From: Candidatus Latescibacterota bacterium
Lineage (GTDB): Bacteria; Latescibacterota; UBA2968; UBA8231
Direction: 5' to 3'
DNA length: 64,000 nt
Assembly (NCBI GenBank): GCA_965203175.1
Contig: OZ241867.1
Span: 5,280,001 to 5,344,000 of the forward strand
Made by a program: the position numbers and the translations under genes. The notes under the pieces were generated by a model. That model was not told where the DNA came from, did not search any database, and worked only from the letters and a program-made list of their open reading frames with translations. Numbering within the stretch: the first letter of the stretch is position 1; each line of letters starts with the position of its first letter. Shown piece by piece: positions 39,358 through 64,000 of this stretch.

Positions 39358-41520
39358 GTGCCCAACCTCCGCCTGCAACTTCCCTACGCCCTTCTCGGCC
39401 TCCTCCTCGCCGCTTCCAGCGCCTACTCAGCCGACTGGCCCTCCTGGCGCGGCCCCACGCAAAACGGCGTCTCCGAGGAGACCGGCCTCGTCGCATCCTG
39501 GTCGCCCATCTGGCACGCCGAATTTACTGGCCGCTCGACTCCCATCGTTCTCAATGGCCGAGTCTTTGTCATCGGCCGTCGCGGTGAAGGCATCGAACAC
39601 GAGGGCGTTGTCGCCGCCTTTGACGCCCAAGACGGCACCCTGATCTGGGAACACGCCTACAACATCTTCCACACCACCATCCCCTTCAACCGCGTCGGCT
39701 GGGCCAGCCTCGCTGGCGACCCAGAGACCGGCTACATCTATGCCCATACCGTCAGTGGACTATTCCTCTGCTTCGACCGCGACGGCAAGGTCGTCTGGTC
39801 CCGCTCGCTGACCGAGGAATTCGGGCGCATCTCCGGCTACGGCGGCCGCGTCCACACGCCCGTCGTCGATGAAGACCTCGTCATCATCAGCTATCTCAGC
39901 TCCAATTGGGGCAGCCACACGCCGGGCCGCCACCGCTACTTCGCCTTTGACAAGCGCAGCGGCGAACTCCTCTGGATTGCCACCCCCGGAGGCCGGCCAC
40001 TCGACACCACGTACTCCGTGCCTGTCGTCGCCACCATCAACGGCGTCCGCCTGCTCATCGGCGGCAATGCCGACGGCTCCATCTATGCCATGAAAATTCG
40101 CACCGGCGAGAGCGTATGGGGCTTCAAGCTCAGTCGGCGCGGCATCAACTCTTCGGTCGTCGTCGCTGGCGACAAAGTGTACGCAGCCCACGGCGAGGAA
40201 AACCTCGACAACACCGCCCTCGGCCGCGTCGTCTGCATCGACGCCACCGGCCAAGGCGACGTTACAAACACGCACGAGGTCTGGCGCTACGACAGCGTGT
40301 TCGCCGGCTACACCAGCCCGGTCTTCTACAACGGCCGCTTGTACATCACCGACAACTCGGCCAACATTCACGCGCTCGACGCCGAGACGGGCCAAGTCCA
40401 CTGGATTCACAACATCGGCACCGTCGGCAAGGGATCGCCCGTGCTGGCCGATGGCCGGCTCTACGCGCCCGAGGTCAACGGCCGCTTTGTCATCGTCGCC
40501 CCCGGCCCCGACGCCGCCGAGACGCTCGACCTCGCCGAGATTGCAATGCCCGACGGACGCCCAGCCGAACTATTCGGCTCGCCAGCCGTAGCATACGGTC
40601 GCATCTACCTTTCCACCGAAGCAGGCGTTTACTGCCTCGGCGACCCAGCGGCGCAGTTCAAGGTCGCCACGACCGCAGCTAACTATCCACGCGAGCAAGC
40701 TGCCCCAGACGCAACACCGGCGCACCTGCAAATCATCCCCGCCGAAGTAGTAGCCCAGCCCGGAGCCAGCGTATCGTTCCGCTCCCGAGCCTTCGACGCA
40801 CACGGTCGCCTAATCGGCCCGATCGATGCCGAATGGTCGCTCTCCGGTCCAGTCGGCCAACTCGACGGCAATACGCTTGTCCTCGCGGACGCACCCAGCG
40901 GCGGCAAAATCGTCGCCAACGCTGGCGAATTGACCGCCGAGGCGCGCATCGCCGTGTTACCCCCGCCGACCTACAGCGAAGACTTCGAGGGTTTCGCCAC
41001 CGACGCCTCACCAGCTTGGATCGGTACAGGCACCAAATTCAAGGTGCGCGAAATGGAAGGCAACAAGGTACTCGTCAAGCCGCCCGCCGCTCGTGGCCTG
41101 CACCGCGCCAACACCTACATCGGCGCGCCCGACATGACCGGCTACACCATCCAAGCCGACCTGTTCGGCACCAAAAAGCGCCGCGCCGTCCCCGACATGG
41201 GCCTGATCGCAAATCGCTACACCCTCGACCTGATGGGCTACCATCAACAGTTGCAGATCCGCACTTGGGCCGCCGAACTGCGGATGGCCAAAACCGTGCC
41301 CTTCGCCTGGGAAACCGGCGTCTGGTACACCATGAAGATGCAGGTGGAAATCGAGGGCGATACAGCCCACATCCGCGGCAAGATCTGGCCCCGCGACGAG
41401 CCAGAGCCAGCTAGGTGGAGCATCCAAGCGGTCGATCCCCTGCCCAACCGCAGCGGCAGCCCCGGACTCTACGGCTATTCTCCCGCTGAAATCTACTACG
41501 ACAACCTGAAAGTTTGGTAA
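39358..41520 (+). CDS. Secreted PQQ-like beta-propeller protein with C-terminal Ig and lectin-like beta-sandwich domains
   Basis: Signal peptide, ADWPSWRGP..NG, repeated A.D..TG...W motifs. Confidence 0.8.
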   Translation: MPNLRLQLPYALLGLLLAASSAYSADWPSWRGPTQNGVSEETGLVASWSPIWHAEFTGRSTPIVLNGRVFVIGRRGEGIEHEGVVAAFDAQDGTLIWEHAYNIFHTTIPFNRVGWASLAGDPETGYIYAHTVSGLFLCFDRDGKVVWSRSLTEEFGRISGYGGRVHTPVVDEDLVIISYLSSNWGSHTPGRHRYFAFDKRSGELLWIATPGGRPLDTTYSVPVVATINGVRLLIGGNADGSIYAMKIRTGESVWGFKLSRRGINSSVVVAGDKVYAAHGEENLDNTALGRVVCIDATGQGDVTNTHEVWRYDSVFAGYTSPVFYNGRLYITDNSANIHALDAETGQVHWIHNIGTVGKGSPVLADGRLYAPEVNGRFVIVAPGPDAAETLDLAEIAMPDGRPAELFGSPAVAYGRIYLSTEAGVYCLGDPAAQFKVATTAANYPREQAAPDATPAHLQIIPAEVVAQPGASVSFRSRAFDAHGRLIGPIDAEWSLSGPVGQLDGNTLVLADAPSGGKIVANAGELTAEARIAVLPPPTYSEDFEGFATDASPAWIGTGTKFKVREMEGNKVLVKPPAARGLHRANTYIGAPDMTGYTIQADLFGTKKRRAVPDMGLIANRYTLDLMGYHQQLQIRTWAAELRMAKTVPFAWETGVWYTMKMQVEIEGDTAHIRGKIWPRDEPEPARWSIQAVDPLPNRSGSPGLYGYSPAEIYYDNLKVW

Positions 41521-42941
41521 TGACTATCGCTATTTGCTACCTCATCCTCGCCCTAACCGCTTCCGCCAGTGCCCAAACCGCCATGTGGGGCGGCTCGCCG
41601 GGGCGCAACCAAGTCTCGGACGAGAAAAACCTGCCCACCACTTGGGACGTCGAGACCGGCACAAACGTCAAGTGGCGCGCCACGCTCGGCTCGCAGACCT
41701 ACGCCGGCCCCCTAATCGCCGGCGACAAAATTTTCGTCGGCACCAACAACCAAGCCGAGCGCGATCCCAACCACAAGGGCGACCGCGGCGTGGTGATGGC
41801 CTTCTCTTTAGAGGACGGCACCTTCCTCTGGCAAATCGCCCATCCCAAGCTGCCGGCCGGCCGCGTCAACGACTGGCCGCAGCAGGGCGTCTGCTCCACC
41901 CCTTATGTCGAAGGCGACCGCCTCTACTACGTCTCCAACCGCGCCGAAGTCGTATGTCTCGACACCGAGGGCTTCCGCGACGGCGAGAACGACGGCCCCA
42001 TCGCCGACGAAGCCGCCACCGCGCCCACCAACGCGGATCTGATCTGGAAATTCGACATGATCGCCGAGCTGGACGTCTTCCCCCACAACCTCGCCACCAG
42101 CTCGCCCATAGGCGTGGACGGTCGCCTCTTCGCCCTGACCAGCAACGGCGTGGACGAGGGCCATATCCACATCCCGGCCCCCTTTGCCCCCAGCTTCATC
42201 GCCCTCGACCTGCAGACCGGCGAGCTGATCTGGGATAGCGACCTGCCCGGCGACCAGATTCTGCACGGCCAGTGGGCCAATCCTGCCTACGGCGAAGCAG
42301 GCGGCCGCAAGCAGGTAATCTTCCCCGGCGGCGACGGCTGGGTCTATGCCCTCGCACCCGACACCGGCGAACTGATCTGGAAATTCGACTGCAACCCCAA
42401 GGATTCGGTGTGGGAATTGGGCGGCCGCGGCACCCGCAACAACCTCGTCTCCACGCCCGTCTTCCACGACGGCGTGGTCTATCTCGGCGTCGGCCAAGAC
42501 CCCGAGCACGGCGAGGGCGAGGGCCACCTGTGGGCCATTGACGCCAGCGGCACCGGCGACATCACCGAGACGGGCGCAATCTGGCACTTCGGTGACAAAA
42601 ACTACAACCGCACCATCTCCACCGTCGCCATTGCCGACGGCCTGCTCTACGCCGCCGACCTGAGCGGCTTCGTCTATTGCCTCGACGCCAAGACCGGCAC
42701 CCACCACTGGACTCACGACACGTTCGCCGCGATCTGGGGCTCACCCTTTGTCGCCGACGGCAAGGTCTATATCGGCGACGAGGACGGCGACGTCGATGTG
42801 CTCAAGGCCAGCAAAACGCTCGAATTGCTCCACGAGACCAATCTGGGCAGCGCCGTGTACACCACTCCAGTCGCCCGCGACGGCGTCCTGTACATCGCCT
42901 CGCGCAACACCCTCTTCGCCATCGCGGAAGAAAACGAATGA
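41520..42941 (+). CDS. Secreted PQQ-like beta-propeller protein
   Basis: MWGGSPGRN, WDVETGTNVKW, repeated D..TGELIW; coupled to the upstream stop. Confidence 0.8.
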   Translation: MTIAICYLILALTASASAQTAMWGGSPGRNQVSDEKNLPTTWDVETGTNVKWRATLGSQTYAGPLIAGDKIFVGTNNQAERDPNHKGDRGVVMAFSLEDGTFLWQIAHPKLPAGRVNDWPQQGVCSTPYVEGDRLYYVSNRAEVVCLDTEGFRDGENDGPIADEAATAPTNADLIWKFDMIAELDVFPHNLATSSPIGVDGRLFALTSNGVDEGHIHIPAPFAPSFIALDLQTGELIWDSDLPGDQILHGQWANPAYGEAGGRKQVIFPGGDGWVYALAPDTGELIWKFDCNPKDSVWELGGRGTRNNLVSTPVFHDGVVYLGVGQDPEHGEGEGHLWAIDASGTGDITETGAIWHFGDKNYNRTISTVAIADGLLYAADLSGFVYCLDAKTGTHHWTHDTFAAIWGSPFVADGKVYIGDEDGDVDVLKASKTLELLHETNLGSAVYTTPVARDGVLYIASRNTLFAIAEENE

Positions 42942-44014
42942 GCGTCTCACTAGACAAAATCGCCGCAGCCCGCGACGACCTCGACGCTCACGTCCGCGCC
43001 ATCGTCGAGTGGCACTTCAGCCCTGAGACCGGCTGCCCGTTTTGGCTCTCCTACGCGCAACAACTCGACTTCGATCCGCGCGAGCAAATCCACTCCTATG
43101 ACGACTTGGCCCTGCTCGGCCACTTTGAGGACGAGTGGCTGCGCGGCGGCCCGGTGCGCCAGTGGGTGCCCAAAGCCTACGCCGACGAGCCGATCTACGT
43201 CTTCGAGACTGGCGGCTCGACCGGCTTGCCCAAATACCGCATCAACATCCGCGACTTCCACACCGACTACGCGCTCTACAGCGAGAGCTTGTCTGAGGAG
43301 GATTTTCCCAAGGGAGCCGACTGGCTGATGCTGGGACCTTCGGGGCCGCGCCGCCTGCGCCTCGCCATCGAGTACCTCGCCCAGCTACGCGGCGGCTTGT
43401 GCTTTATGGTGGATCTCGACCCGCGCTGGGTCAACGAACTCATCCGCGCCGCCAAGATGCGCGAGTTGGAAGACTACAAAGCCCACGTCATCGAGCAGGC
43501 GCTCAAGATCCTCAAGGCCCACGACAACGTGCAGTGTGTCTTCACCACCCCCCGCCTCCTCGAAGCCCTCTGCGAAAAAGTCTCCCTGCCCAAGCTCGGC
43601 ATTAAGGGCATCTTCTGCGGCGGCACGGAAATGAACGCCCAGTTCCACCGCTTCGCCCGCGAGGAGTTGGTGCCCGGCCTCGCCTTTGTCCCCACCTACG
43701 GCAACACCCTGATGGGCCTAGCCTGCCCCAAGCCCTTTGACCCGACCGACGAATACGCCATCACCTACTACCCGCCGCAGCCACGCGCCGTCATCGAGCT
43801 GGTTGATCCCAAAGACCCCTCGCGCAAGGTCGGCTACGGTGAGACCGGCCAAGTCATGCTCACCACCCTGACCAAGGAATTTTTCATGCCTCGCTTCCTC
43901 GAACGCGATGAGGCCGAACGCGCTGAACCTATTGAGGTGTATCCTTGGGACGGGGTTAAAGATTTGCGCTTGCTGACGGAGTTGCAGGAGTCTGTGGTGG
44001 TGGGAGTGTACTGA
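42938..44014 (+). CDS. EhpF/GriC/LuxE-like acyl-adenylating (ANL-related) enzyme
   Basis: WHFSPETGCPFW, FETGGSTGLPK P-loop, GGT, PTYGNTLMG, FLERD; ATGA overlap with the upstream gene. Confidence 0.75.
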   Translation: MSVSLDKIAAARDDLDAHVRAIVEWHFSPETGCPFWLSYAQQLDFDPREQIHSYDDLALLGHFEDEWLRGGPVRQWVPKAYADEPIYVFETGGSTGLPKYRINIRDFHTDYALYSESLSEEDFPKGADWLMLGPSGPRRLRLAIEYLAQLRGGLCFMVDLDPRWVNELIRAAKMRELEDYKAHVIEQALKILKAHDNVQCVFTTPRLLEALCEKVSLPKLGIKGIFCGGTEMNAQFHRFAREELVPGLAFVPTYGNTLMGLACPKPFDPTDEYAITYYPPQPRAVIELVDPKDPSRKVGYGETGQVMLTTLTKEFFMPRFLERDEAERAEPIEVYPWDGVKDLRLLTELQESVVVGVY

Positions 44015-44191
44015 GTGTGAGTTCTATGCTTGGGTAGTGCATCAATTTGAGGAAGCCCTGATACTCGTCAATATTAAGGCTTCCGTCTGCACCTTTCCTA
44101 AATTTCAAACATGCCACTACCTATACTCGAAGAAATTCTTTAGCGACCAAAATTGTTTCGTTCCTATTGGAAACTCTACGCCGACCCCGCA

Positions 44192-44992
44192 TCAGAATCT
44201 AAATGGAGGACTGGGTTCTGCCCACCAGTAATAGATGTATATAGCTACCATGGCCACCAATACGATTTGTACCAAAATAAACACTTTCGACGAAAACGAC
44301 CTAGTCTTCTGTAATTCTTCCCATGAGGCAATCATTGAGACCATTATGACAAAAAAGAAGAAAAAAAGGAATGCTACTTGCCCTAGCGCCCCTATCTCTA
44401 TCACCTCTTTCCTATCCTCCAGTTCCCGAACATCGCCCTGCTGTTCGACTGTCCCAGAGGCGGTAATCGATGTCTGGTCGTCTCCAAAGTAGATCAGCTG
44501 CAGCATGGCTCCATCGCCCTGTTCAAGAATCGTCCAGTCTACGCCGAGTTGCCCCTCACCAATCTTCGACTTATCGAGCCGAAGACCAACTACCCCACGA
44601 GTCACCTTTTGGATGTCCGCCTCGATGATAGGATTAAGCGGTCCCGTCTTGACGACGAAGGGACTGAGTAGGTTTTTTCCTCGGATAGACTCTTCCCCGT
44701 CGTTCCAGATGATGATCTGAGCTGCAGTTACGTCTTTTTTGACGACTTCGCCGTCTAACTCAATATGTAGCCTCGAACTCTGATTCGCTCGGACAACCGC
44801 AGCCCTTGCTGAATCAACACAATAGATAAGGTCCGGACTCGTTCTGCTTGCTAGATAAAAAGAGACTGACAGAATTATTCCGATCACTCCTGAAATGCTA
44901 CCGACAATCGCAACTATAGGCTTGCTGAAGAATCGTTTTACGCTGTTTGTTGATTCCGGAGGCTTACTCTCTGTCTCATGGGAATCACTCAT
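44192..44992 (-). CDS. Hypothetical membrane protein (about 3 TM helices)
   Basis: One N-terminal and two C-terminal hydrophobic segments; AGGAG RBS; lower GC. Confidence 0.65.
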   Translation of the reverse strand: MSDSHETESKPPESTNSVKRFFSKPIVAIVGSISGVIGIILSVSFYLASRTSPDLIYCVDSARAAVVRANQSSRLHIELDGEVVKKDVTAAQIIIWNDGEESIRGKNLLSPFVVKTGPLNPIIEADIQKVTRGVVGLRLDKSKIGEGQLGVDWTILEQGDGAMLQLIYFGDDQTSITASGTVEQQGDVRELEDRKEVIEIGALGQVAFLFFFFFVIMVSMIASWEELQKTRSFSSKVFILVQIVLVAMVAIYIYYWWAEPSPPFRF

Positions 44993-45165
44993 CGTCAACT
45001 CCTTTGAAAACCATCAGGTGCGACCGTGCTGTTTGATCCGACTCCTGAGGGCCGTTATGTCAAGCAGCTCACTACAATTCTCTGACATACCACATTGATG
45101 AGTCCTTCTGAAAAGTAGCAGATAATCAAATCACCTATGAGATCACATCAACTAACTGAGATATA

Positions 45166-45690
45166 TTAGACTGTATCTTTTTCTACCATACGAAGAGCCG
45201 CCGTGACCACGACAGTCGCGTCCTCCTCTATAACGCTGTAGAATGATTTATGCTCAGTAACTGCCCGTAATGCGACACTTTCTTTCTGCCCCGGCCTACG
45301 AAAGTGGCTGTAGATATTTCGGGTTCTGCGCAGGTTATCTAGTTGCTGGTACTCGCTGGTAACAATCATACCACGAGTATGTGCTTCTTTCAGTAGCTTC
45401 GAGACACCTGCACGTTTAAGGTCGTCACGGCCTCTTGCATAAAACAACGCCGCAAGAGTTCGTTCAATATATGCGAGGCCCAAGATAGTTGTCGCCAAGA
45501 ACTGACCGTAAACAAAACAATATCTCATCTCTTCAAAAAGGCTCTTGGCCAGCAAGCCGCCGGGAAATGTCCAATACACCGCTTCCGGCGAATTATCGAT
45601 CAGCCAATTGAGCCGCGAAAGCCTACCTTCCCGGCATTGAGTATCTTCAGTATCTAGCCAGTCTGAGGCGGTTGAGGCTTTCTCGAACAA
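45166..45690 (-). CDS. HEPN-like (DUF4145-type) protein
   Basis: Helical protein with E...L motif and RNIYSH (Rx4H); AGGAGGT RBS before TTG. Confidence 0.6.
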   Translation of the reverse strand: MFEKASTASDWLDTEDTQCREGRLSRLNWLIDNSPEAVYWTFPGGLLAKSLFEEMRYCFVYGQFLATTILGLAYIERTLAALFYARGRDDLKRAGVSKLLKEAHTRGMIVTSEYQQLDNLRRTRNIYSHFRRPGQKESVALRAVTEHKSFYSVIEEDATVVVTAALRMVEKDTV

Positions 45691-45789
45691 TTCGTTACCT
45701 CCTTCTATTTCGAAATATCTTCGGCCATCAGTTTAGCTTTATGAACCTTATGCCGTAGATATCACTCGCTGCGACTGAGGCGAAGCTCT

Positions 45790-45886
45790 CGGCGAGAACC
45801 CAGCCGAGCACATAGTCCTTTTCTACAACCTAGAGCAGCAAGCCAAGGGTACCCGCCACATCGAGAATTGCGCGGCGGTCGATCAT
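45790..45886 (-). pseudogene. AbiEii nucleotidyltransferase toxin remnant
   Basis: MIDRRAILDVAGTLGLLL*VVEKDYVLGWVLA, with TAG at 45830-45832 and loss of similarity after about 32 codons; ATG overlaps the AbiEi stop. Confidence 0.8.
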
Positions 45887-46689
45887 GCGGACGCTGCCTT
45901 GGCCCAGCTCTCAGGCATAAGAAGGTGCCATCGGGATATGAGGCGGCGGCATGAAAGCCCCGGGTCAAGTTTGGCGTTTCCTTGAGTCAGACGCGCACGG
46001 CACGCCTCAATAAGGGTGGTAGTGCCGGGTCCTCGTTCTGCCAGAAAGCCCAAGCGCTTGAACACGGCACCGTTACCAAGCTGGTCTGCATAGGCAATCA
46101 GCTTGTCATCATCCCTGTCCTTGCGGTCGAAATAGGTTGCAAGACAGTCGGCAACATGCTGGATGCCGGCTCCGAGGTCTGGATCGTCGAGCATGTCGAT
46201 GACGGTGCGGTGAACGTCCGATATGGCGATCTGGGTTCTTCCACGCCAGACGGTCTTCGTCCCGAAGATCATACCCTGCTGGACATGCTTTAGAGTGAAG
46301 TGTGCGCTATGGCGTTGCTGGCTTTTCGCACGCACGGCCCGCGCTGTCATCACAACAATATCGCGGAAGATCTGCTCCGTCAGGTCCCAGTGTTCGGCGG
46401 CAGTCCGGCCTCCGATGTAAGCAGGCTTAAAGAGCGCAGGCACCAGCATCCAAGGATCATCGAGAACCTGCTCGCTGGCAAGGGAGTCAAGGCCAACTGG
46501 TGCGTAGGCACCCGGACCGACGCGCCGCAGCCAGCCCTGCCCGCTCCAACGGGAAAGCAGCTTGGCGGCGTCAGAACGGCTAACGCCGAGGACATCTTCA
46601 GCATCGGCGATATGAATGATGTCGCCGGATGCCCGAATAACGTCGGACAGTCTGCGGCGTCCCTTAGGTATAGCGATCTCTGAACTCAT
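45883..46689 (-). CDS. Type IV TA AbiEi-family antitoxin/transcriptional regulator
   Basis: wHTH with GWLRRVGPGAY, YIGGRTAAEHWDLTEQ, RTVIDMLD.P, KRLGFL. Confidence 0.85.
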   Translation of the reverse strand: MSSEIAIPKGRRRLSDVIRASGDIIHIADAEDVLGVSRSDAAKLLSRWSGQGWLRRVGPGAYAPVGLDSLASEQVLDDPWMLVPALFKPAYIGGRTAAEHWDLTEQIFRDIVVMTARAVRAKSQQRHSAHFTLKHVQQGMIFGTKTVWRGRTQIAISDVHRTVIDMLDDPDLGAGIQHVADCLATYFDRKDRDDDKLIAYADQLGNGAVFKRLGFLAERGPGTTTLIEACRARLTQGNAKLDPGLSCRRLISRWHLLMPESWAKAASA

Positions 46690-46713
46690 GGCAATGTAAT
46701 GTATAGTGAAACT

Positions 46714-46744
46714 GCAAAAAATCGCGTTTTATGTGAATTTTTGC
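46714..46744. promoter_or_regulatory. Imperfect inverted repeat upstream of abiEi (putative operator)
   Basis: GCAAAAAATCGC-N7-GTGAATTTTTGC (2 mismatches). Confidence 0.4.
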
Positions 46745-46833
46745 CTGTATAATACATATATAAGAAGGGGCGAACTCTCGCAAGGAGGCCATCAAGCGTA
46801 CATCTCATCTACCAAAGGCGGGCAAATCACAAA

Positions 46834-47259
46834 CTCTTCGACAGCGAGGAAATCAGCCCGGCCCATTGACTTTTCCATGATTTCCATATCAGATTGACCT
46901 CTAGCATAGGAAAGGAGTAGGTAAAGGTGGCCAGAGTTCAGTTAGTGATCCCGGATGAAGACCGTGACCGCTTCGTCCGTCAGGCGCAGAGCGAAGGCAT
47001 GACCTTGAGCGAATGGCTCAGGGTTGTCGCCCACCGACGGCTCGAAGAACAGCAGCGATCCTGCCCCTTCGAATCCCCAGCCGACCTTGAAGAGTTCTTC
47101 CGCGCCTGCGACGCATTGGAAGGCCCCGAACGGGAACCAGATTGGCAGGAGCACCTGACCGTCATCGACAAATCGCGAAAACGGTTGAGCAACTCTTGAG
47201 ACCAACGAAATCGCGGTAGGCACGTTTCTTAACCACGCCTACCGATCTCTTCGACAGCG
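46834..47259. repeat. 13-bp direct repeat CTCTTCGACAGCG flanking the small antitoxin-like gene
   Basis: Copies at 46834-46846 and 47247-47259. Confidence 0.7.
46927..47199 (+). CDS. Ribbon-helix-helix (VapB/CopG-like) antitoxin, orphan
   Basis: ARVQLVIPDEDRDRFVRQAQSEGMTLSEWLR; AAGGAG RBS. Confidence 0.65.
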   Translation: MARVQLVIPDEDRDRFVRQAQSEGMTLSEWLRVVAHRRLEEQQRSCPFESPADLEEFFRACDALEGPEREPDWQEHLTVIDKSRKRLSNS

Positions 47260-47260
47260 G

Positions 47261-52633: not shown

Positions 52634-52688
52634 TGGGGGAGAGGAATGTGAGACGACCGCACCAAGACGCAACGGTCGCAATATGAAG

Positions 52689-53174: not shown

Positions 53175-53418
53175 GATCTATTTCGCGTTTCAATGCGTCG
53201 ATATCCACTGCAAAGACATCCACTTGCTCACGGGTTAAAGCCATGAGGAAGTCGGTGCGATCCAAACCGGCTATATGGGCGGCCTTTTCTTGCGAGATCA
53301 TTCCTCTTTCATACCAGTGGATAGCCCCAGCTAGGCGCAGTTCAGCGACGAACTCCTCTGGCGAGCGACGCAAAGCGGAAAACACTTCATCCGGCAATTC
53401 TAAGGTGACTTTAGTCAT
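53167..53418 (-). CDS. UPF0175 family antitoxin-like protein
   Basis: AIHWYERGMISQEKAAHIAGLDR..F; overlaps the DUF3368 gene. Confidence 0.85.
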   Translation of the reverse strand: MTKVTLELPDEVFSALRRSPEEFVAELRLAGAIHWYERGMISQEKAAHIAGLDRTDFLMALTREQVDVFAVDIDALKREIDRG

Positions 53419-53607
53419 AACCAATAATCCTGCTTTATTATCTCGAACACTTGTCTACAGATGGGAACAAGCCTTTTCTGACAAGATAGCCGTTTTCCTA
53501 GATTCGACCAAATACAGACGTTTTAACAACATAGCGCGCCACAGTGATGGTCTGCGCATAGGTCTGATCTAGTTAAATAGCCAAGTATTAGTATGAAGTT
53601 TCGTCAT

Positions 53608-57468: not shown

Positions 57469-57598
57469 ATCTCAATACTACTGGTTTGCTAGTAAGACAG
57501 AACCTGCAAATCTCGTTAATCGTTACGGCGGTGCCCTGACCGTGAAGATGAGACCTCAGCGGTTCCTTGGAGTACAGTCGAAATCGAGCTCTCGGTTT

Positions 57599-58405
57599 CT
57601 ATACCGCATCCAACGTCGGCGCATTGTCCTGACAGTAGACCGGTCGGAAGAGTGTCTGTCGTTTAAACGGCATCTCTTCAAGGTGCTGCGGATGTGGTTC
57701 CCACTGATGCCACTTGTTGCCAACGGTATTGTAGCAGTTGAAAATGGCGATCCGATCGACAGTTTCGTCAGTCCACTTGGCACCAGTATGCGTAATCGCC
57801 TCCGTGAAAATAAGCACGGAGCCTGCGGGACAGGTGTAATCCTCCCATAACGGGGAGTTGCGATCCTCCGTTGACTTGGGAGCGGGAAACGCCCCTTTAT
57901 GGCTGCCGGTAAGGAACATGGTTCCACCGCAACCTTTTTGCACCGGATTGAGTTCCCAGACCACGCGCGTCAACCCACTGTGTGCCTTGTCGTAGTGCAG
58001 ATGATAGGTATGCGAGTTGCCGGGGAAGTTGAGCATCCCACGTCCGCCGTGTGGTCGGAAAGCGTCGTGTCCATTCGCACGAATGGTTAGAAACGTGCTT
58101 TCCAGCCGAAATCCATAACAGTTTTCGTTGGCGTAGGCCGAGGCCAAAAATTCATTCATGAATCCGCAGACAACTGGATGATCGGTTAGACTCTCCAAGG
58201 GACCGCCGATGGAATAGCGATGGTGTTCGGGAATGGATCTTGGTTCCTGTTTGAGTTGGTAGCAGAACGCGCGCATCTCTTGAATCTCTGATTCGCTGAG
58301 TACGCCAGGGATCAGCGCCCACCCGCGAGTATCAAAGAGATAGCGTTGTTCTTCCGTCAGTGGAATCGACGGTAGATTATCAGCATTCGTCGTAGGATTC
58401 GGCAT
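57599..58405 (-). CDS. Phytanoyl-CoA dioxygenase (PhyH)-like Fe/2OG enzyme
   Basis: EQRYLFDTRGW, PHGG, GGTMFLTGSHK, AGSVLIFTEAITH, R; start reassigned to MPNPTT after GGGAGG. Confidence 0.8.
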   Translation of the reverse strand: MPNPTTNADNLPSIPLTEEQRYLFDTRGWALIPGVLSESEIQEMRAFCYQLKQEPRSIPEHHRYSIGGPLESLTDHPVVCGFMNEFLASAYANENCYGFRLESTFLTIRANGHDAFRPHGGRGMLNFPGNSHTYHLHYDKAHSGLTRVVWELNPVQKGCGGTMFLTGSHKGAFPAPKSTEDRNSPLWEDYTCPAGSVLIFTEAITHTGAKWTDETVDRIAIFNCYNTVGNKWHQWEPHPQHLEEMPFKRQTLFRPVYCQDNAPTLDAV

Positions 58406-58451
58406 AATTCCCTCCCTCTTTCGGGTGTCTATCAGATCGTGAGAAGTCCCA

Positions 58452-60281
58452 TTACCGATACTGCTTCGCCTGAGTATTGAACATCTGCGCGTACCTGCCG
58501 TCCTCGGCCAAGAGTTGCTCGTGACTCCCCTGCTCGACAAGCTCTCCCTGCTGCAGAACGAGAATGTGATCGGCCATGCGCACGGTGGAGAAGCGGTGAG
58601 AGATAAAGATAGCCGTGCGGTCCGACGTGAGCTCGGCGAAGCGCGAGAAAACATCGCGTTCAGCAAACGCATCGAGAGCGGCTGTAGGCTCGTCCAAAAT
58701 GAGCACCTCCGCCTCTTTCATAAACGCACGACTCAGCGCAATCTTCTGCCACTCGCCACCAGACAGATCAACCCCCTCGTCGAATTCCTTTCCCAAGATT
58801 GTGTCGTATCCCTTCGGCAGACCCTTGATGAGGTCCGAGGCACCACCCTCGTATGACGCGCGTTCGATCCGATCATCATCGTCCAACAGATCCACTTGAC
58901 CAAAGCCGACGTTCTCCTTGGCAGAGAGATCGTAGCGAACAAAATCCTGGAAAATCACCCCGATTTGGCGGCGCAGGCCTGCCAGATCGTATTCCCGAAG
59001 ATCTCGTCCATCCAAGTAAATACCACCTTCTGTGGGGTCGTAGAACCGCGCTAGTAGCTTGACGAGGGTCGTCTTGCCAGCTCCGTTTTCCCCAACAACG
59101 GCTACCGACTCGCGCACCCCGATAGTAAAAGAGACGTTCTTTAATACATCCTTGTCGGAGCCTGGATAGCGGAAAGAAACATTTCTGAACTCAATGCTCT
59201 GAGTTAGGCGATCTGGAACTGGTGCAGGCGACGCGGGAGGCGGCGTTAGCGCCCCTTCAACCGAGCGGGGGTCGAGGTCGAGAAACCGGAAGAGAATCCC
59301 GGCGAAGATCGTATGCTCGTAGAACAGCCCAAGATTCCTGAACAGACTGGAGAACCCAGACCGTCCCTGCTCGGCAGCCTGGAATGCAAGCGCCACGGTG
59401 CCCACGCTGATATGGCCACCCACGGCTCGTACAACGGCGTAAGCCCAGATGGAGGCTGTCCCTATCATCGTAATCAATCCTAGAAGAAAACCGAATCGTT
59501 CCTCGGCAAATCGGAGGCGCAATGTTTCCTTGCTGAATAACTCCCAGAAATTCCTGAATCGTCTCAACAATTCCTCGTGCAGTGCGAAGATGCGGATCTC
59601 CTTGACCGCCTCACGAGAGGCGAGTATACGCGACAGGTATTCTGCCATACGCCGATTACTAGCCCTTGCTCCGAACAATGAGAAACGCCTTCCGGCGTAA
59701 TGACCGCCAACGATCACCTGCGGTGCCGCAGTGACGAGCAGTATTATTGGCGCTGCCCAGTGCACTGAGAGCAGTACTGCCAACATGGCTATAAGTCCGG
59801 TCAATGAGGAGACGATTAGCAGGGACAAGATAGCGAGATTATGGGAGCGGTAGATTTCACTCCTGGCCTTCTCCATCTCATCAAAAAAGACCGAGTTCTC
59901 GAAGAAGGCGATGTCGAGCTGAGCCGCCTTCCTTAAGATCAAATACTGGCTGTGGTTGCCGGCAAGGAACCCGACTTTTTCCTGCAGCCCAGTCGCTGCC
60001 GCGCTACATATAGAACCCAGAATCCAAACGCCGAAAACACCAGCAACCGGTATTAGCAACCCGATCCAGTCCACTGCGGCTCCACCCCCATCACTCACGG
60101 CGCTGACTACGTTGTCGATGACAATCTTGGTGATCCAGACCTGTGCAGCCGGAACCACAGCACCGAGTATACTCACCCCGATAGCTAGGATAGCGTGCGC
60201 CCCGGCCGCATCCCAAACTAGGCGGACGCACCGAGGGTAATATTCGATTATCTGGGCTATGGGCCGTAGAATCGCGAGCAC
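58452..60281 (-). CDS. ABC exporter, fused permease/ATP-binding protein
   Basis: 6-TM domain, GENGAGKT, LSGGEWQK, ILDEPT, ISHR. Confidence 0.92.
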   Translation of the reverse strand: MLAILRPIAQIIEYYPRCVRLVWDAAGAHAILAIGVSILGAVVPAAQVWITKIVIDNVVSAVSDGGGAAVDWIGLLIPVAGVFGVWILGSICSAAATGLQEKVGFLAGNHSQYLILRKAAQLDIAFFENSVFFDEMEKARSEIYRSHNLAILSLLIVSSLTGLIAMLAVLLSVHWAAPIILLVTAAPQVIVGGHYAGRRFSLFGARASNRRMAEYLSRILASREAVKEIRIFALHEELLRRFRNFWELFSKETLRLRFAEERFGFLLGLITMIGTASIWAYAVVRAVGGHISVGTVALAFQAAEQGRSGFSSLFRNLGLFYEHTIFAGILFRFLDLDPRSVEGALTPPPASPAPVPDRLTQSIEFRNVSFRYPGSDKDVLKNVSFTIGVRESVAVVGENGAGKTTLVKLLARFYDPTEGGIYLDGRDLREYDLAGLRRQIGVIFQDFVRYDLSAKENVGFGQVDLLDDDDRIERASYEGGASDLIKGLPKGYDTILGKEFDEGVDLSGGEWQKIALSRAFMKEAEVLILDEPTAALDAFAERDVFSRFAELTSDRTAIFISHRFSTVRMADHILVLQQGELVEQGSHEQLLAEDGRYAQMFNTQAKQYR

Positions 60282-60425
60282 TGAGCCTCCCCTATCCGAC
60301 GTCGTAGTCTGACTTCTATATACACATACTTACTACACACTCGGTCAAGGCTGGCGTCTGCCACCAAATTAGCAAAATTTTGCCCTCTTCTTTACTTTCG
60401 TTCATAATCCCTCAACCAACATAAT

Positions 60426-61514
60426 ATGCCACTCTACTTCTTAACCTTACTCCTAGTCACCACCGCCGCCGCTGACACCTGGAACACCTTCCGCGGCAAT
60501 CCCCAACTCACCGGCGTCGCCACCTCCGACCTCGCCCCACCCCTAACGCTACTGTGGGCCTACTCCACCCAAGACGCCATCGAATCCACCGCCGCCATCC
60601 ACGAAGGTACGGTGTACGTCGGCTCACTCGACGGCCAGCTCTATGCACTTGACTTGCACACCGGCGCGCTAGCGTGGCAGTACCAAGCCGACGGCGAAAT
60701 CAAGTCCTCCCCCACCATCGCCGACAGCACCGTGTACTTCGGCGACGAAGCCGGCACCTTCCACGCCGTCGCCATCCAAAGCGGTCAGCGCCGCTGGACT
60801 TTCGCCGCCGACGCTGGCATCATCTCCTCAGCCAACCATGCCGACGACCGTCTCTACTTTGGCAGCTACGACCAGCACCTGTACTGCCTCGATGCAACCG
60901 CCGGGACCCTGATTTGGAAAATCGCCACAGAGGGATATATTCACAGTACGCCGGCGCTGTATAAAAACCGAGTCGCCGTAGCCGGTTGCGACGGATACTT
61001 GCGGCTTTTGAATGTCACCGACGGCACACACCACCAGCGGCTTGAGCTAGGCGGGTACGTGGCTTCTAGCGCCGCCATCCAAGCGGGACGCGCGTACCTA
61101 GGCACCTTTGGCAACGAAGTACTCGGCATCGATTTAGACACAGGAGCAATCCGCTGGCGCTACGCCCACGCGGTGCGGAAATTCCCGTTTTACTCGTCGC
61201 CAGCCGTTGCCGACCAAGCAGTCGTCATCGGCGGCCGGGACAAACTCGTACACGCCCTCGACCCGCAAACTGGCCAATCCTTGTGGACCTTTGCCGCAGG
61301 AGCGCGGGTGGATTCATCGCCGGTCATCGCCGGTGATTATATTTACGTAGGTGCCCGTGCGCTCATCGCCCTCGCCCTCGCATCGGGCGCGGAAGTCTGG
61401 CGCTTTGAAACGGGCGCAGCCATCGCCGCTTCACCGGCCATCGCCGCTGGCCGACTCGTCATTGGAGCCACCGACGGCGTGCTGTATTGTTTTGGGAAAG
61501 AAATCAAACCATGA
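60426..61514 (+). CDS. Secreted PQQ-like (BamB-like) beta-propeller protein
   Basis: Signal peptide, W.TFRGNPQLTG, about 8 repeats of SSP....VY.GS.DG.LYALD..TG...W. Confidence 0.85.
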   Translation: MPLYFLTLLLVTTAAADTWNTFRGNPQLTGVATSDLAPPLTLLWAYSTQDAIESTAAIHEGTVYVGSLDGQLYALDLHTGALAWQYQADGEIKSSPTIADSTVYFGDEAGTFHAVAIQSGQRRWTFAADAGIISSANHADDRLYFGSYDQHLYCLDATAGTLIWKIATEGYIHSTPALYKNRVAVAGCDGYLRLLNVTDGTHHQRLELGGYVASSAAIQAGRAYLGTFGNEVLGIDLDTGAIRWRYAHAVRKFPFYSSPAVADQAVVIGGRDKLVHALDPQTGQSLWTFAAGARVDSSPVIAGDYIYVGARALIALALASGAEVWRFETGAAIAASPAIAAGRLVIGATDGVLYCFGKEIKP

Positions 61515-62848
61515 GTTCACTCGGCAGCGACCCAGCAACCACCCGCGCCGACCGCACTGAAACCGAGGTCGGCAGCGTCTTTGTCTCCAACTACCCGGCC
61601 TATTCATTTTGGAGTGAGGAGGACGTGCCACAGGCACATCGCGCACTCGCCGACTCGCCACATCCCGACACCAAACTCGGCCTCTACCTCCACATCCCCT
61701 TCTGCCGCAAGCGCTGCAAGTTCTGCTACTTCCGCGTTTACACGGACAAAAACAGCCAGCAGATTCAGACCTACTTAGACGCCCTCGCCCGCGAGGTGGA
61801 ACACTACGCCCAACAGCCAGCGATCAAAGACCGGCCACTGCACTTTATCTACTTCGGCGGCGGCACTCCTTCTTACATCAGTTCGCGCCACCTGCGCTCC
61901 TTAGTCCAGCGCCTCAAAGACGCCATGTCCTGGGACCACGCCGACGAAATCGCCTTTGAGTGCGAGCCGGGCACCCTGACTCAAGCCAAATTGGAAGCCA
62001 TCCGCGCCATCGGCGTCACCCGCCTCAGCCTGGGAATAGAAAACCTCGACGACGAGATTCTGCGCCACAACGGCCGCGCCCACGTCAGCAAGGAAATCTA
62101 CCAAGTCATGCCTTGGATCCACGCGCTCGCCTTCGATCAGGTCAACGTCGATCTGATCGCCGGCATGGTCGGCGAGACGTGGCCGAGCTGGCGTCAGACT
62201 GTGCAAAAAACCATCGAGTTCGACCCCGATAGCGTCACCGTCTATCAGATGGAGCTACCCTACAACACGGTCTATTCCAAGGATCTGCTCGCTGGCGACG
62301 GCGAGCCGCTATCCTTAGCCGACTGGAAGACCAAGCGCGCCTGGCACGCCTATGCCTTCGAGCAATTATCCGCTGCCGGATACGTGCGTTCGAGCGCCTA
62401 CACCATGAAAAAAACGCCCGACGCCCGCTTCGTGTACCGCGACGCCGTGTGGACCGGCCAAGACATGATCGGCACCGGCGTCGCCTCCTTCTCGCACCTG
62501 AGCGGCGTCCACTACCAGAATGCGCCGCAGTGGGACGAGTACCTCGCCGCCATCGACTGCGGCAACCTCCCCATCCACCGCGCCTTCGCCACCAACCGCG
62601 AAGAACAACTCACCCGCGAGGTGATCCTCCAGCTCAAATTAGGCGCGCTGGACACCGCGTATTTCCGCGCCAAATTCGGAGTCGATATCGTCGCCCACTT
62701 CGCCACTGCACTCAGCGGCCTGCGCGACGAAGGCATGCTCCAATTCGACACCAACGCGATTGAACTGACCGATGAGGGCCTCATGCGCGTCGATCAGCTC
62801 CTGCCCGACTTTTACCAAACCCAATACCGCAACGCACGCTATACCTAA
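61511..62848 (+). CDS. HemN-like (class C) radical SAM enzyme
   Basis: YLHIPFCRKRCKFCYF (CxxxCxxC), YFGGGTPS, RLSLG, DLIAG, C-terminal LTDEG. Confidence 0.85.
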   Translation: MSSLGSDPATTRADRTETEVGSVFVSNYPAYSFWSEEDVPQAHRALADSPHPDTKLGLYLHIPFCRKRCKFCYFRVYTDKNSQQIQTYLDALAREVEHYAQQPAIKDRPLHFIYFGGGTPSYISSRHLRSLVQRLKDAMSWDHADEIAFECEPGTLTQAKLEAIRAIGVTRLSLGIENLDDEILRHNGRAHVSKEIYQVMPWIHALAFDQVNVDLIAGMVGETWPSWRQTVQKTIEFDPDSVTVYQMELPYNTVYSKDLLAGDGEPLSLADWKTKRAWHAYAFEQLSAAGYVRSSAYTMKKTPDARFVYRDAVWTGQDMIGTGVASFSHLSGVHYQNAPQWDEYLAAIDCGNLPIHRAFATNREEQLTREVILQLKLGALDTAYFRAKFGVDIVAHFATALSGLRDEGMLQFDTNAIELTDEGLMRVDQLLPDFYQTQYRNARYT

Positions 62849-62861: not shown

Positions 62862-64000
62862 TTGAAAAGCGCGATCTCACTTCTATTGTTCCTGACCGCC
62901 ACCGCACAAGCGGCCGACTGGCCCCAGTGGCTTGGCCCCCAGCGCAACGGCATCTCCAGCGAAACCGGCCTCTTCACCGCCGAGCAACCTTTTGCAGAAG
63001 CATGGCGCGTCCCGCTCGGCAATGGCTTCTCCGGCATCTCCGTCGCCGACGGGAGGGTCTTCACCATGTTCGCCCGAGGCGACGACGAGTTCGCCATCTG
63101 CCTCGATGCCGAAACCGGCAATGAGATCTGGCGTCACCGCACCGGTCCTTACTACAAGGAAACCCAAGGCGGCGACGGCCCGCGCTCGACGCCCACCGTC
63201 GATGGTGAGACCGTCTATGTACTCGGTGCCACCGGCAAGCTCTTTGCACTCGCAGCCGCGAGTGGCACGCCGATCTGGGAAAAGGACTTGGTCGCCGAGT
63301 TCAGCAGCCAAGTGCCGAGGTGGGGGTTTAGCACCTCCCCATTAGTCGAAGGCGACCTGCTCCTAGTCGAAGCCGGCGGCCACGACGGCAACTTCGTCGT
63401 CGATATGGCCATCGACCGCACAACCCCGGTCACCGCCGTAGCCCTCGACAAAGCTACCGGCGCAACCGTTTGGACCGCCCTCAACGAAAAGATGAGCTAT
63501 TCATCGCCCATCGCCTTCACTGCGGCCGGCACCCGCCAACTCGCCTATTTCACGGCTTATTCGCTTACCGGCCTAGCGCCGGAAGACGGTCGCGTTTACT
63601 GGCGCTACCCTTGGAAAACCCGCTACGACGTCAGCGCGGCGACGCCCGTTTTCATCGCGCCCGACCGAATTTTTATTTCCACCGTCAACAGCAACGGCGG
63701 CACGGTCTTGCAAATCAAGGGCAACGGCGACAGCCTCGCCGTCGAGCAGATTTGGCAAAACAAAAAGATGGAAAACGAGTTCGGCACCTCGGTCCTCTAC
63801 GAGAACCATCTCTACGGCTTTGGCGGCTCAATCCTCAAGTGCCTCGACGCCGCGACCGGCGAAGAAAAGTGGAAGACCCGAGGCTACGCCAAGGGCACCC
63901 TGCTCATCGCCGATGGCCATCTCATCATCTTGGGCGAACAAGGCAATCTCGGCATAGCCGAAGCCACGCCCGAAGGCTTTGTCGAAAAGGCTAGCTACCC
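62862..64000 (+). CDS. Secreted PQQ-like beta-propeller protein (runs off window end)
   Basis: Manual translation from TTG 62862 after AGGAGG gives MKSAISLLLFLTATAQAADWPQWLGPQRNGIS...GPRSTPTVDG. Confidence 0.85.
   Translation, partial: MKSAISLLLFLTATAQAADWPQWLGPQRNGISSETGLFTAEQPFAEAWRVPLGNGFSGISVADGRVFTMFARGDDEFAICLDAETGNEIWRHRTGPYYKETQGGDGPRSTPTVDGETVYVLGATGKLFALAAASGTPIWEKDLVAEFSSQVPRWGFSTSPLVEGDLLLVEAGGHDGNFVVDMAIDRTTPVTAVALDKATGATVWTALNEKMSYSSPIAFTAAGTRQLAYFTAYSLTGLAPEDGRVYWRYPWKTRYDVSAATPVFIAPDRIFISTVNSNGGTVLQIKGNGDSLAVEQIWQNKKMENEFGTSVLYENHLYGFGGSILKCLDAATGEEKWKTRGYAKGTLLIADGHLIILGEQGNLGIAEATPEGFVEKASY

Follow-up and report, generated by a model that had tools for sequence, protein, structure and literature searches.

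What might a bacterium do with an operon in which exported beta-propeller proteins are encoded side by side with an adenylating enzyme, an aldehyde dehydrogenase (ALDH)-fold protein, an iron-containing alcohol dehydrogenase and a radical S-adenosylmethionine (SAM) enzyme? The question is raised by a 64,000-nucleotide stretch from the 6.58-Mb single-contig genome of a Candidatus Latescibacterota bacterium (GenBank assembly GCA_965203175.1, contig OZ241867.1, positions 5280001-5344000), hereafter called the window, to whose positions all coordinates refer unless stated otherwise. Between 39358 and 64000, eight co-oriented open reading frames (ORFs) on the plus strand encode, in order, the propellers P1 and P2, an EhpF-like adenylating enzyme, the ALDH-fold protein, the iron-containing alcohol dehydrogenase (Fe-ADH), the propeller P6, a HemN-like radical SAM enzyme (rSAM) and the propeller P8. 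An earlier, sequence-only reading of the window had named these families, and the ORF list together with Pfam and NCBIfam places all eight genes there and assigns each of them to the family so named. We are nearly certain that this region is the front half of one conserved operon, which is present in a single copy and whose order is kept across several phyla. Our preferred reading is that the operon serves small-molecule processing around a two-protein carboxylate reductase and an alcohol dehydrogenase, together with uptake, tailoring and periplasmic propellers; we hold this reading to be evenly balanced between right and wrong. The chemistry at its centre, that of the reductase and the alcohol dehydrogenase, appears rather probable to us, and the wider picture of uptake and tailoring is tentative.

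Layout and conservation of the operon

Two islands, at 44015-50114 and 52634-60425, break the series, and all their genes of note lie on the minus strand; their GC content is 0.48-0.54, as opposed to 0.59-0.64 for the operon. Once the islands are removed, the genes are packed in the way that the sequence-only reading had described, with start and stop codons that overlap as TAATG between P1 and P2 and as ATGA between P2 and the EhpF-like gene, between the ALDH-fold and Fe-ADH genes, and between P6 and rSAM; rSAM and P8 are separated by 13 nt that include AGGAGG (all junctions read from the sequence). The eight genes of that description are all real and lie near the conserved core, but the series does not end at the window edge. 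The operon runs for about 11.4 kb beyond it without a change of strand, through nine more co-oriented genes that encode P9-P11, a TonB-dependent receptor, a PaaK-like ligase, a flavin-dependent halogenase, a DUF3311 protein, an SSF symporter and a family 4 glycosyltransferase (GT4). Without the islands, it measures about 22.5 kb and comprises 17 genes, and every cluster gene is single copy in the genome. The remark that the window holds no polyketide synthase (PKS), nonribosomal peptide synthetase, phenazine-core or lux family proved correct for the 47 window ORFs scanned against Pfam. A search for a riboswitch or another RNA clue gave zero Rfam matches at gathering score in the window and seven loci, and scans of 43900-61000 for promoters (13 promoter-like sites versus 9.7 expected) and terminators (23 terminator-like sites versus 16.4 expected) were uninformative.

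At least 8000 proteins of the collection are related to the EhpF-like protein, the best 120 of them being 354-376 aa long and 74-96% identical to it, and a genome scan retrieved at least 588 stretches encoding relatives. The locus counts given throughout refer to the best 80 of these stretches with 10-kb flanks (loci are designated L and genomes G). Over these 80 loci, the identity of the EhpF-like proteins is 60-98%, mostly 67-79% between phylum labels, and the nearest relatives by this gene (96-98%) are metagenome-assembled genomes (MAGs) labelled Candidatus Latescibacterota, with some labelled Gemmatimonadetes. A neighbourhood search with this protein, which had been proposed as a test of the cluster, revealed a gene order conserved across phyla. 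The ALDH-fold gene follows the EhpF-like gene, adjacent or in order, in 67 of the 80 loci, the order P1, P2, EhpF, ALDH is found in 58 (five phylum labels plus unlabelled MAGs), and all seven core genes stand in order in 25, under four phylum labels and in unlabelled MAGs. The flank limit cuts many of the 80 loci short, and among the 64 that extend 9 kb or more downstream the seven-gene count is 24. An order conserved in 58 and 25 of 80 loci is more than chance. By submitter label, the seven-gene order occurs in 9 of 18 Latescibacterota, 7 of 34 Poribacteria, 4 of 10 Acidobacteriota, 1 of 4 Gemmatimonad-labelled and 4 of 9 unlabelled loci; it was found in none of the four Calditrichota loci, which show part of the order, and not in the single Planctomycetota locus.

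Since the operon exceeds the flank, the counts for its far genes are lower bounds: at least 11 of the 80 loci have the TonB receptor, at least 12 the PaaK-like ligase, at least 8 the halogenase, at least 5 the SSF symporter and at least 6 the GT4. The composition of the operon also varies. The TonB receptor is absent from Poribacteria, in which rSAM is directly followed by PaaK, and from some Latescibacterota loci; the PaaK-like gene is absent from the Thermoanaerobaculia loci, and both the PaaK-like and halogenase genes are absent from two soil MAGs. The loci of Blastocatellia and related Acidobacteriota (L085-L088) are reduced to EhpF-ALDH-GT4. De novo clustering of all the ORFs in the 80 loci uncovered no extra cross-phylum gene beyond those listed here.

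In a quick tree of 76 EhpF-like proteins, supported by SH-aLRT values only, the grouping follows phylum labels to a large extent, with 8 label changes for a minimum possible of 5 and an average of 30.4 after shuffling. Among 168 genomes of the window's phylum, the EhpF-like gene occurs in 98 and the rSAM orthologue in 97: 96 genomes have both, two only the EhpF-like gene (G101, G147), one only rSAM (G095) and 69 neither, and the three discordant genomes are 81-86% complete. The 168 genomes are not independent, being related by kinship; the tallies match by family (f1-f4 with the genes, ten families without) and by genus as well. These distributions are strong support for joint gain and loss of the two genes. 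Both lie on one contig in 24 genomes of the window's genus, and in 20 of them the starts lie 3.6-21.5 kb apart, the distance in the window (18.6 kb) being among the largest and distances of 3.6-5 kb corresponding to operons without islands. In the other four genomes (G142, G141, G131, G138), the EhpF-like and rSAM genes are 0.49-3.1 Mb apart on one contig and both are kept, which argues that their link is functional and does not act through co-transcription only.

The predicted reductase pair, its companion enzymes and the propellers

The EhpF-like protein (42938-44014, plus strand, 358 aa) corresponds to the core of an ANL-superfamily enzyme without the C-terminal subdomain. In a phmmer search of the PDB, it aligned over its full length with 3l2k_A and 3hgu_A (E value of 1.4e-43, query residues 9-358 on chain residues 14-366), and it ends where EhpF ends; Pfam AMP-binding covers only profile positions 255-373, and neither AMP-binding_C nor PP-binding is present. 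Its phosphate loop, TGGSTGxPK at residues 91-99, follows what we take to be the ANL consensus T/S-G-G-S/T-T-G-x-P-K: G92, G93, T95, G96, P98 and K99 are invariant in 28 aligned sequences, at least 90% of which also keep T91 and S94, and the mean column identity is 80%. From these features, we infer that the protein would adenylate a carboxylic acid. A query of the ESM Atlas with the EhpF-like protein returned only unnamed AMP-binding clusters.

The ALDH-fold protein (50115-51509, plus strand, 464 aa; Pfam Aldedh 1.1e-13, 51.1 bits for a cut-off of 23) is the candidate reductase subunit, of the EhpG/GriD type. C282 and N158, which by motif would be the catalytic Cys and the oxyanion Asn, are invariant in 28 sequences. 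Another invariant residue, H246 in H-G-P-G-x-S-K, sits at the place of the Glu of the E-L-G-G-K-S motif of ALDHs. A Cys and an Asn without the general-base Glu are expected of a two-protein carboxylate reductase, which reduces a thioester rather than hydrolysing it. Searched against the PDB, the protein matched generic ALDHs only, the best being KauB (2.1e-09).

The EhpF-like and ALDH-fold proteins are predicted to bind each other. Three runs of complex prediction gave ipSAE values of 0.78, 0.78 and 0.79, versus 0.00 for the best of three controls; the ipSAE mark applied is reached by 116 of 157 solved complexes and by 2 of 215 mismatched pairs, rates that are approximate, custom alignments having been used. 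The contacts agreed between runs by at least 72%, and the pLDDT of the partner was at least 90. The predicted interface brings residues 233-244 of the EhpF-like protein, right after its FCGGTEM motif, together with residues 14-16 and 34-45 of the ALDH-fold protein, and the interface residues are mostly invariant in both alignments, including S14 and A35-N36-x-G38 of the ALDH-fold protein.

Such a pair recalls EhpF and EhpG, of the D-alanylgriseoluteic acid phenazine pathway of Pantoea agglomerans, and GriC and GriD, of the grixazone pathway of Streptomyces griseus. GriC forms an acyl-AMP that GriD reduces to the aldehyde (PMC10179220), and ehpF, of 1062 bp, lies next to ehpG, of 1371 bp (PMC11278526). 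Likewise, a short ANL protein (358 aa) stands here beside an ALDH-fold protein (464 aa). The likeness to EhpF is a full-length sequence match; that to EhpG and GriD is one of fold, size, residues and context. Unlike both known pairs, the one described here has no phenazine or 3-amino-4-hydroxybenzoic acid (3,4-AHBA) core pathway nearby, belongs to a far more conserved and widespread family, and shares its operon with exported propellers, a radical SAM enzyme and importers. In the LuxE/LuxC fatty-acid reductase of luminous bacteria, one subunit forms the acyl adenylate and passes the acyl group on to a Cys of an ALDH-fold reductase, and by analogy we propose the same logic of adenylation and subsequent transfer to a Cys for the present pair. 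In contrast to LuxE/LuxC, however, neither protein matches Pfam LuxE (PF04443) or LuxC (PF05893) at E values up to 0.01, and LuxD transferase and luciferase are missing here. PP-binding and NAD_binding_4, as expected of a type I carboxylic acid reductase, which carries a carrier domain and a C-terminal SDR-type reductase domain in one A-PCP-R chain, were also not matched by any of the 22 cluster-region ORFs (Pfam). Together, the full-length EhpF match, the Cys and Asn without the Glu, the predicted binding and the joint occurrence in 67 of 80 loci bear out the sequence-only reading in its assignment of an adenylation/ALDH-fold pair of the EhpF/EhpG type.

An EhpF-ALDH fusion, suspected from open frames of 833-835 aa over the EhpF match in four genomes, was rejected. 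In the locus examined (L091, the same as G167), the ALDH begins after the EhpF stop; the open frame upstream of the EhpF-like gene spans P2, and the 862-aa ORF that holds the ALDH reads the EhpF region out of frame.

Fe-ADH (51506-52633, plus strand, 375 aa; Pfam Fe-ADH 1.3e-44 and ADH_Fe_C) scores below every NCBIfam equivalog cut-off, with ErcA as the best (260 versus 550), and follows the ALDH in 42 of the 80 loci. The rSAM gene (61487-62848, plus strand) codes for 453 aa, or for 445 aa from its likely start, ATG 61511. The protein has the Pfam domains Radical_SAM and HemN_C (37.8 bits for the latter), and its PDB matches are HemN (1olt, 4.1e-38) and the methyltransferase NocN (5.5e-27). 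It carries GGGTP and CRKRCKFCYF, a CxxxCxxC motif. HemN proper needs a fourth Cys (CxxxCxxCxC), at the place of which the rSAM has a Phe. Its scores fall short of the NCBIfam cut-offs for HemN (207.5 versus 324.95 bits), STM4012 (199.4 versus 380), HutW (194.9 versus 400), HemZ (156.2 versus 321.4) and HemW (151.2 versus 205.4), and we therefore place it in an unassigned HemN-like subfamily.

As for the genes past the window edge, the TonB receptor of the operon scores 259.4 bits with TIGR01783 (cut-off of 223.5), shows the Plug and barrel domains of Pfam and has Fiu as its best equivalog (157.7 bits). The PaaK-like ligase (PaaK family, 271 bits), which is also matched by the FlxY and BagE/FevW models of NCBIfam, is encoded next to the halogenase (L008:7932-10462), in the same operon as the genes of the window. 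The halogenase matches 8zop (4e-67) and the Mpy16-type 5buk (9.1e-58) in the PDB, as well as PltA, CndH, CmlS and Bmp2. Aligned with a solved halogenase, it keeps the flavin-dependent halogenase motifs GGGPAG (GxGxxG) and WFWYIPL (WxWxIP) and the conserved Lys in FPRKH. About 3.7 kb past the GT4, the window's genome encodes an ATP-binding cassette (ABC) ATPase and a 1162-aa double-FtsX permease.

The propellers make up a large part of the operon. P1 (39358-41520, plus strand, 720 aa; Pfam PQQ_2 3e-42) is exported and has, besides its signal peptide, a PQQ_2/BamB-like propeller of 8 blades, an Ig-like domain and, at the C terminus, a jelly roll; its AlphaFold model (pLDDT of 90) has BamB and tetrathionate hydrolase as top PDB matches, and 74 of the 80 loci contain a match over half or more of the query. 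P2 (41514-42941, plus strand, 475 aa; Pfam PQQ_2 8.7e-27; likely start ATG 41520) is an exported propeller present in 73 loci, with an identity of 61-97% in those that have the P1-P2-EhpF core, L082 (41%) being the sole exception. P6 (60426-61514, plus strand, 362 aa; Pfam Beta-prop_ACSF4, 232.8 bits for a cut-off of 133) is an exported minimal propeller, the model of which (pLDDT of 94.8) is a bare 8-bladed propeller with about 40 residues per blade, closest to the designed Cake8 and, among natural PDB structures, to YxaL (TM score of 0.86), tetrathionate hydrolase and BamB (0.75-0.81). P8 (62862-64000, plus strand; Pfam PQQ_2), an exported propeller of 415 aa in full, runs off the window edge to about 64109 and is the first of four tandem paralogues, followed downstream by P9-P11 (L008:863-5803). 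The pairwise identity of 49-78% among P8-P11 points to local amplification. Four tandem genes of the P8 type are found here, versus one or two in most other lineages. In contrast, P1, P2, P6 and the P8 type share only 22-29% identity over long alignments and are old, separate propeller families.

The N termini of the four window propellers read as plain signal peptides without a Cys lipobox. The best score with the pyrroloquinoline quinone (PQQ)-dehydrogenase models TIGR03075/TIGR03074 of NCBIfam is 77 bits, far short of the cut-off of 480, and the best with the BamB model TIGR03300 is 151.8 bits for a cut-off of 285.2. The proteins resemble YxaL and BamB, the latter a lipoprotein of outer-membrane protein assembly, in fold and Pfam family, as cofactor-less 8-bladed PQQ_2 propellers, but differ from BamB in having no lipobox and in scoring below its equivalog cut-off, and from both in that each operon holds four paralogous families distinct from one another, one of which adds Ig-like and jelly-roll domains. 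Neither cofactor features nor an active-site clue were found in the models of P1 and P6, and the suggestion of the sequence-only reading that the exported propellers bind or use the product was not borne out by these bare BamB/YxaL-like structures.

A proposed pathway and competing explanations

According to our preferred reading, a carboxylic acid would be taken up, in the genomes that have them, by the siderophore-type TonB receptor and by the SSF symporter with its DUF3311 partner. The EhpF-like protein would adenylate the acid, and the acyl group would be transferred to Cys282 of the bound ALDH-fold partner, from which reduction with NAD(P)H would release an aldehyde that Fe-ADH would convert to the alcohol. 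The HemN-like rSAM may then tailor the molecule, most likely through a class-C-type C-methylation or a related radical step, as may the optional pair of PaaK-like ligase and flavin halogenase, and the GT4 would add further tailoring. The three to four ancient, non-catalytic-looking BamB/YxaL-like propellers would handle the result in the periplasm. We lean towards an aromatic (phenolic) acid as the substrate, a preference and not a result, because EhpF/GriC, the PaaK/FlxY/BagE-like ligases, the phenol/pyrrole-type halogenases and the Fiu-like receptor all point in this direction.

Several points weigh against this reading. The nearest named families of Fe-ADH use small polar aldehydes, which would fit poorly with an aromatic acid, and a co-oriented cytoplasmic sulfatase with a CAPSR motif, encoded after the ALDH in 16 Poribacteria loci (e.g., L053:15068-16567), looks catabolic rather than biosynthetic; both call for caution. 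The claim that the reductase pair and Fe-ADH take an acid to an alcohol is supported by the relation to EhpF, by the Cys and Asn without the Glu, by the predicted binding and by the 42 loci with Fe-ADH, but Fe-ADH is absent from L017 and L018. The TonB receptor, the PaaK-like ligase and the halogenase are optional, so that a halogenated product cannot be the general outcome. The score of the complex is model confidence and not a measurement, and a solved complex of the LuxC-LuxE type, if there is one, may partly explain the pass by likeness. Nothing in the propeller models ties these proteins to a small molecule, and gene order alone is no proof that all the genes act on one molecule.

Some of these features would be accounted for if the operon served the uptake and the breakdown or salvage of an external carboxylate, from a host or the community, which would be imported and then detoxified or assimilated through PaaK-like activation, reduction and, in Poribacteria, desulfation, after capture or pre-processing by the propellers. 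SSF symporters with small partner subunits usually carry carboxylates, and the operon contains a pair of outer- and inner-membrane importers; the sulfatase of the 16 Poribacteria loci also argues for this explanation, as does the fact that one of the best structural matches, tetrathionate hydrolase, is a periplasmic propeller that works as an enzyme without a cofactor. We nevertheless judge it unlikely, since GT4, flavin halogenases and HemN-like radical SAM enzymes are families typical of building and not of breakdown, since no ring-cleavage, beta-oxidation or other catabolic genes were found among the conserved neighbours in the 80 loci, and since the receptor is absent from the Poribacteria loci.

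A bolder version of the biosynthetic idea would be an undescribed envelope system, spread over at least four phyla, in which an acid would be reduced, modified by a radical step, mostly glycosylated and then put onto, or inserted by, the three to four propellers, yielding a new periplasmic cofactor or an outer-membrane lipid with a BamB-like scaffold; its junctions would be recurrent landing sites of defence genes in unrelated phyla. Taken with all its parts, we find this proposal doubtful.

An envelope glycolipid pathway would have a precedent in that of heterocyst glycolipids, glycosides of long-chain alcohols that leave through the MacB-like DevBCA-HgdD pump; DevCA resembles MacB and exports these glycolipids (PMC6161253). 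By analogy, a fatty or alkyl-aryl acid would be reduced to an alcohol, converted to a glycoside by the GT4 and extracted by a MacB-like ABC/double-FtsX machinery of the FtsX type, the propellers delivering this envelope glycolipid to the outer membrane; a two-protein reductase would replace the PKS-bound reductase of the heterocyst pathway. In keeping with this, the reduced loci L085-L088 retain precisely EhpF, ALDH and GT4, about 3 kb past its GT4, L086 encodes an ABC ATPase with 54% identity together with an FtsX permease that is full length and 40% identical over 1226 columns, the same pair lies downstream of the GT4 in the window's genome, and BamB-like scaffolds are envelope-assembly parts. 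Nonetheless, we consider such a glycolipid improbable. In the window's genome, the ABC/FtsX pair has no membrane-fusion gene of the HlyD/DevB type beside it, unlike DevBCA, and an opposite-strand LysR gene and an adenylosuccinate-synthetase-like gene separate it from the GT4. The linkage of the pair to the core is loose, the FtsX permease having been found in just 1 of the 80 loci within the 10-kb flank. Moreover, no acyl carrier protein or fatty-acid gene is present, and the TonB receptor and the SSF importer would be left without a role.

Haem d1 undergoes cytoplasmic radical SAM maturation and is handled by the periplasmic propellers NirF and NirN, and by analogy the cytoplasmic enzymes of the operon might make or remodel a small cofactor that would be exported and loaded into the propellers. 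The fixation in the operon of three to four ancient propeller families (22-29% mutual identity), translationally coupled to cytoplasmic enzymes, would be explained in this way, as would the conservation of the propellers (46-72% identity across phyla, which is high for exported proteins) and the tetrapyrrole-related ancestry of the HemN-like enzyme. Yet the models are minimal 8-bladed propellers, closest to designed propellers, YxaL and BamB and devoid of additional elements for cofactor binding, the scores with every PQQ-dehydrogenase model fall far short of the cut-off, the core has no dedicated exporter conserved alongside it, and the Blastocatellia loci keep EhpF-ALDH without P1, P2 and P6, all of which makes a propeller cofactor a quite improbable product.

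Finally, that the reductase pair, the propellers and the importers are unrelated modules merely travelling together could be read from modules that come and go between lineages, from insertions tolerated at two or more junctions and from megabase-scale splitting in 4 of 24 same-genus genomes, but this explanation is hardly credible in view of the near-perfect co-occurrence of the EhpF-like and rSAM genes in 168 genomes, the start/stop overlaps between exported and cytoplasmic genes, the order kept under four to five phylum labels and the retention of both halves after splitting.

Islands, neighbouring genes and relation to described clusters

The islands are insertions: L017 and L018, the EhpF-like proteins of which are 84-85% identical to that of the window, show EhpF and ALDH genes separated by 16 bp, with no island. 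More generally, the gap between these two genes is at most 300 bp in 21 of 67 loci and exceeds 300 bp in 46. Each island is composite, with one part shared with close relatives (89-93% nucleotide identity) and a variable part made of defence or toxin-antitoxin genes. The variable part of island 1 (44015-47879, minus strand; GC content of 0.48-0.51) contains an AbiEi antitoxin gene (45883-46689; PADLOC 4.3e-126) and has only patchy nucleotide matches in the close relatives L011-L016; the ORF list gives three unassigned minus-strand ORFs for this island, at 44192-44998, 45166-45690 and 47261-48037. Its shared part is a TonB-dependent receptor gene (47880-50018, minus strand, 712 aa; Pfam Plug and TonB_dep_Rec), with 92-93% nucleotide identity in L011-L013. 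This receptor was tried as a paralogue of the operon receptor and rejected, the two sharing 24% identity over 312 residues.

In island 2, the variable part (52634-57598, minus strand) encodes a PDC-S70 pair, in which a DUF3368 protein (52689-53174) is joined by a partner of 85 aa (53167-53424), as well as a STAND NTPase of 1286 aa (53608-57468); the PADLOC values for PDC-S70 are 1.1e-56 and 1.6e-09, and the nSTAND matches in Pfam are weak. The shared part encodes a PhyH-family dioxygenase (57599-58672, minus strand; Pfam PhyH 1.4e-06), the start of which is uncertain and overlaps the end of the ABC gene, and an MsbA-like ABC exporter (58452-60281, minus strand), a half-transporter of 609 aa with the Pfam domains ABC_membrane and ABC_tran. 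The PhyH gene has 89-92% nucleotide identity in L012 and L013, in which the exporter is conserved as well; the latter scores 305 bits with the MsbA model of NCBIfam, for a cut-off of 602. In two DNA runs, contigs connect 52638 directly with 53131, and in one, 52642 with 58453, showing that populations without these genes exist. In DNA run X5, the contig depth was about 100-fold lower over 44232-45563 and 53556-57551, a hint only, of which we made no use. Signs of mobile elements were searched for at the islands: flanking direct or inverted repeats did not exceed chance size, and no transposase or integrase family was detected by Pfam or PADLOC.

The slot between EhpF and ALDH is occupied in other lineages too. 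In the Poribacteria loci (L019-L069), it mostly contains a co-oriented gene for a 233-aa cytoplasmic propeller-like protein with a weak Vgb_lyase match (27 loci, e.g., L058:7357-8058), of which the window's genome has a 64%-identical copy elsewhere (G000:C1:822504-823196). Other loci have in this place a BsoBI-type restriction-modification pair, GmrSD, a type I specificity subunit, AAA_14/DUF4143 ATPases, AbiEi, HepT or an IrrE-like protein. The EhpF-ALDH junction is thus a recurrent landing site with different defence cargo in different phyla. We also observed that the AT-rich spacer between the island receptor and the ALDH (50019-50114) contains the short repeated sequence tatagatta tagatt, maybe a divergent promoter or an operator; a second AT-rich spacer lies at 60282-60425. 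Evidence for expression from a metatranscriptome run (X1) was set aside, since contigs in an RNA library do not show transcription. The Logan contigs of this run, which are 90-97% alike and hence come from relatives, cover the EhpF, island receptor, ALDH, Fe-ADH and rSAM genes and the PhyH/ABC overlap and leave the defence parts uncovered, and a part without cover proves nothing.

A few other genes deserve mention. Beside a divergent LysR regulator, in the stretch from the GT4 to the ABC/FtsX pair, lies an adenylosuccinate-synthetase-like gene (L008:15052-16134) that is short, coding for 360 aa; it is below the PurA cut-offs, and the PurZ model gives 126 bits versus 300. A few kilobases past the ABC/FtsX pair, the stretch L089:6335-8613 (G000:C1:5365334-5367612, minus strand) carries the cobinamide salvage genes CbiZ and CobD/CbiB together with another PhyH gene. 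Elsewhere in the window, 18672-25074 (minus strand) holds a Pup-proteasome set, with two genes of the Pup-ligase family (PafA/Dop type), the proteasome alpha and beta subunits and an AAA ATPase of the ARC/Mpa type. Two large minus-strand paralogues of 889 and 1152 aa (1092-3761 and 15341-18799), which combine an M6 peptidase domain with a beta-helix/NosD region and end in an FlgD_ig domain, probably act as secreted proteases of the cell surface. A pair formed by an Xre/ParS-type antitoxin and a RES-domain toxin is found at 34818-35923, with a TauD-family dioxygenase (33577-34776) just upstream.

Searches of the literature on EhpF/EhpG, GriC/GriD, D-alanylgriseoluteic acid and Poribacteria, halogenases and Latescibacteria yielded no description of this operon besides a preprint on Halo_AMP clusters from sponge microbiomes (Loureiro et al., bioRxiv 10.64898/2026.08.03.742642), to the accessible part of which our statements about these clusters are limited. 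Halo_AMP clusters are defined there by an FADH2-dependent halogenase along with an AMP-binding enzyme, and they show PQQ-like domains at high frequency, TonB transporters, toxin-antitoxin, radical SAM and glycosyltransferase genes; their best MIBiG matches are BagE-like PaaK ligases and Bmp2-like halogenases. Their origins include Latescibacterota (9% of families), Poribacteria (8%) and Acidobacteriota (16%), and they are presented as orphan clusters in 20 connected components, with no product linked (10.64898/2026.08.03.742642). In keeping with this definition, a halogenase and a PaaK-like ligase occur together in the present operon, downstream of the window, and the Halo_AMP clusters, as far as that part of the preprint describes them, probably include this operon type. 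In the same part, however, the EhpF/ALDH/Fe-ADH core, its conserved order and its spread outside sponges are not described, and the two genes that define Halo_AMP are optional modules in our loci. The cluster thus does not map to an already characterised pathway, the nearest record in print listing such clusters as orphans (10.64898/2026.08.03.742642, accessible part). New here are the prediction that the two reductase subunits form a heteromer, the finding that the reductase and rSAM genes are inherited together almost without exception, the distinction between core and optional modules, the composite make-up of the islands and the slot inside the operon that defence genes occupy recurrently.

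The phyla that carry this operon abound in sponges, sediments and soils but have hardly been cultured, and finding the substrate would give a function to thousands of genes now called hypothetical. The substrate could also explain why PQQ-like propellers crowd these clusters. To our knowledge, the only two-protein carboxylate reductases described so far belong to a few pathways for antibiotics and pigments, and the present pair may be a compact, carrier-free carboxylate reductase of use in biocatalysis. That defence genes have repeatedly entered one and the same junction inside the operon is an oddity of genome architecture in its own right, and a testable one.

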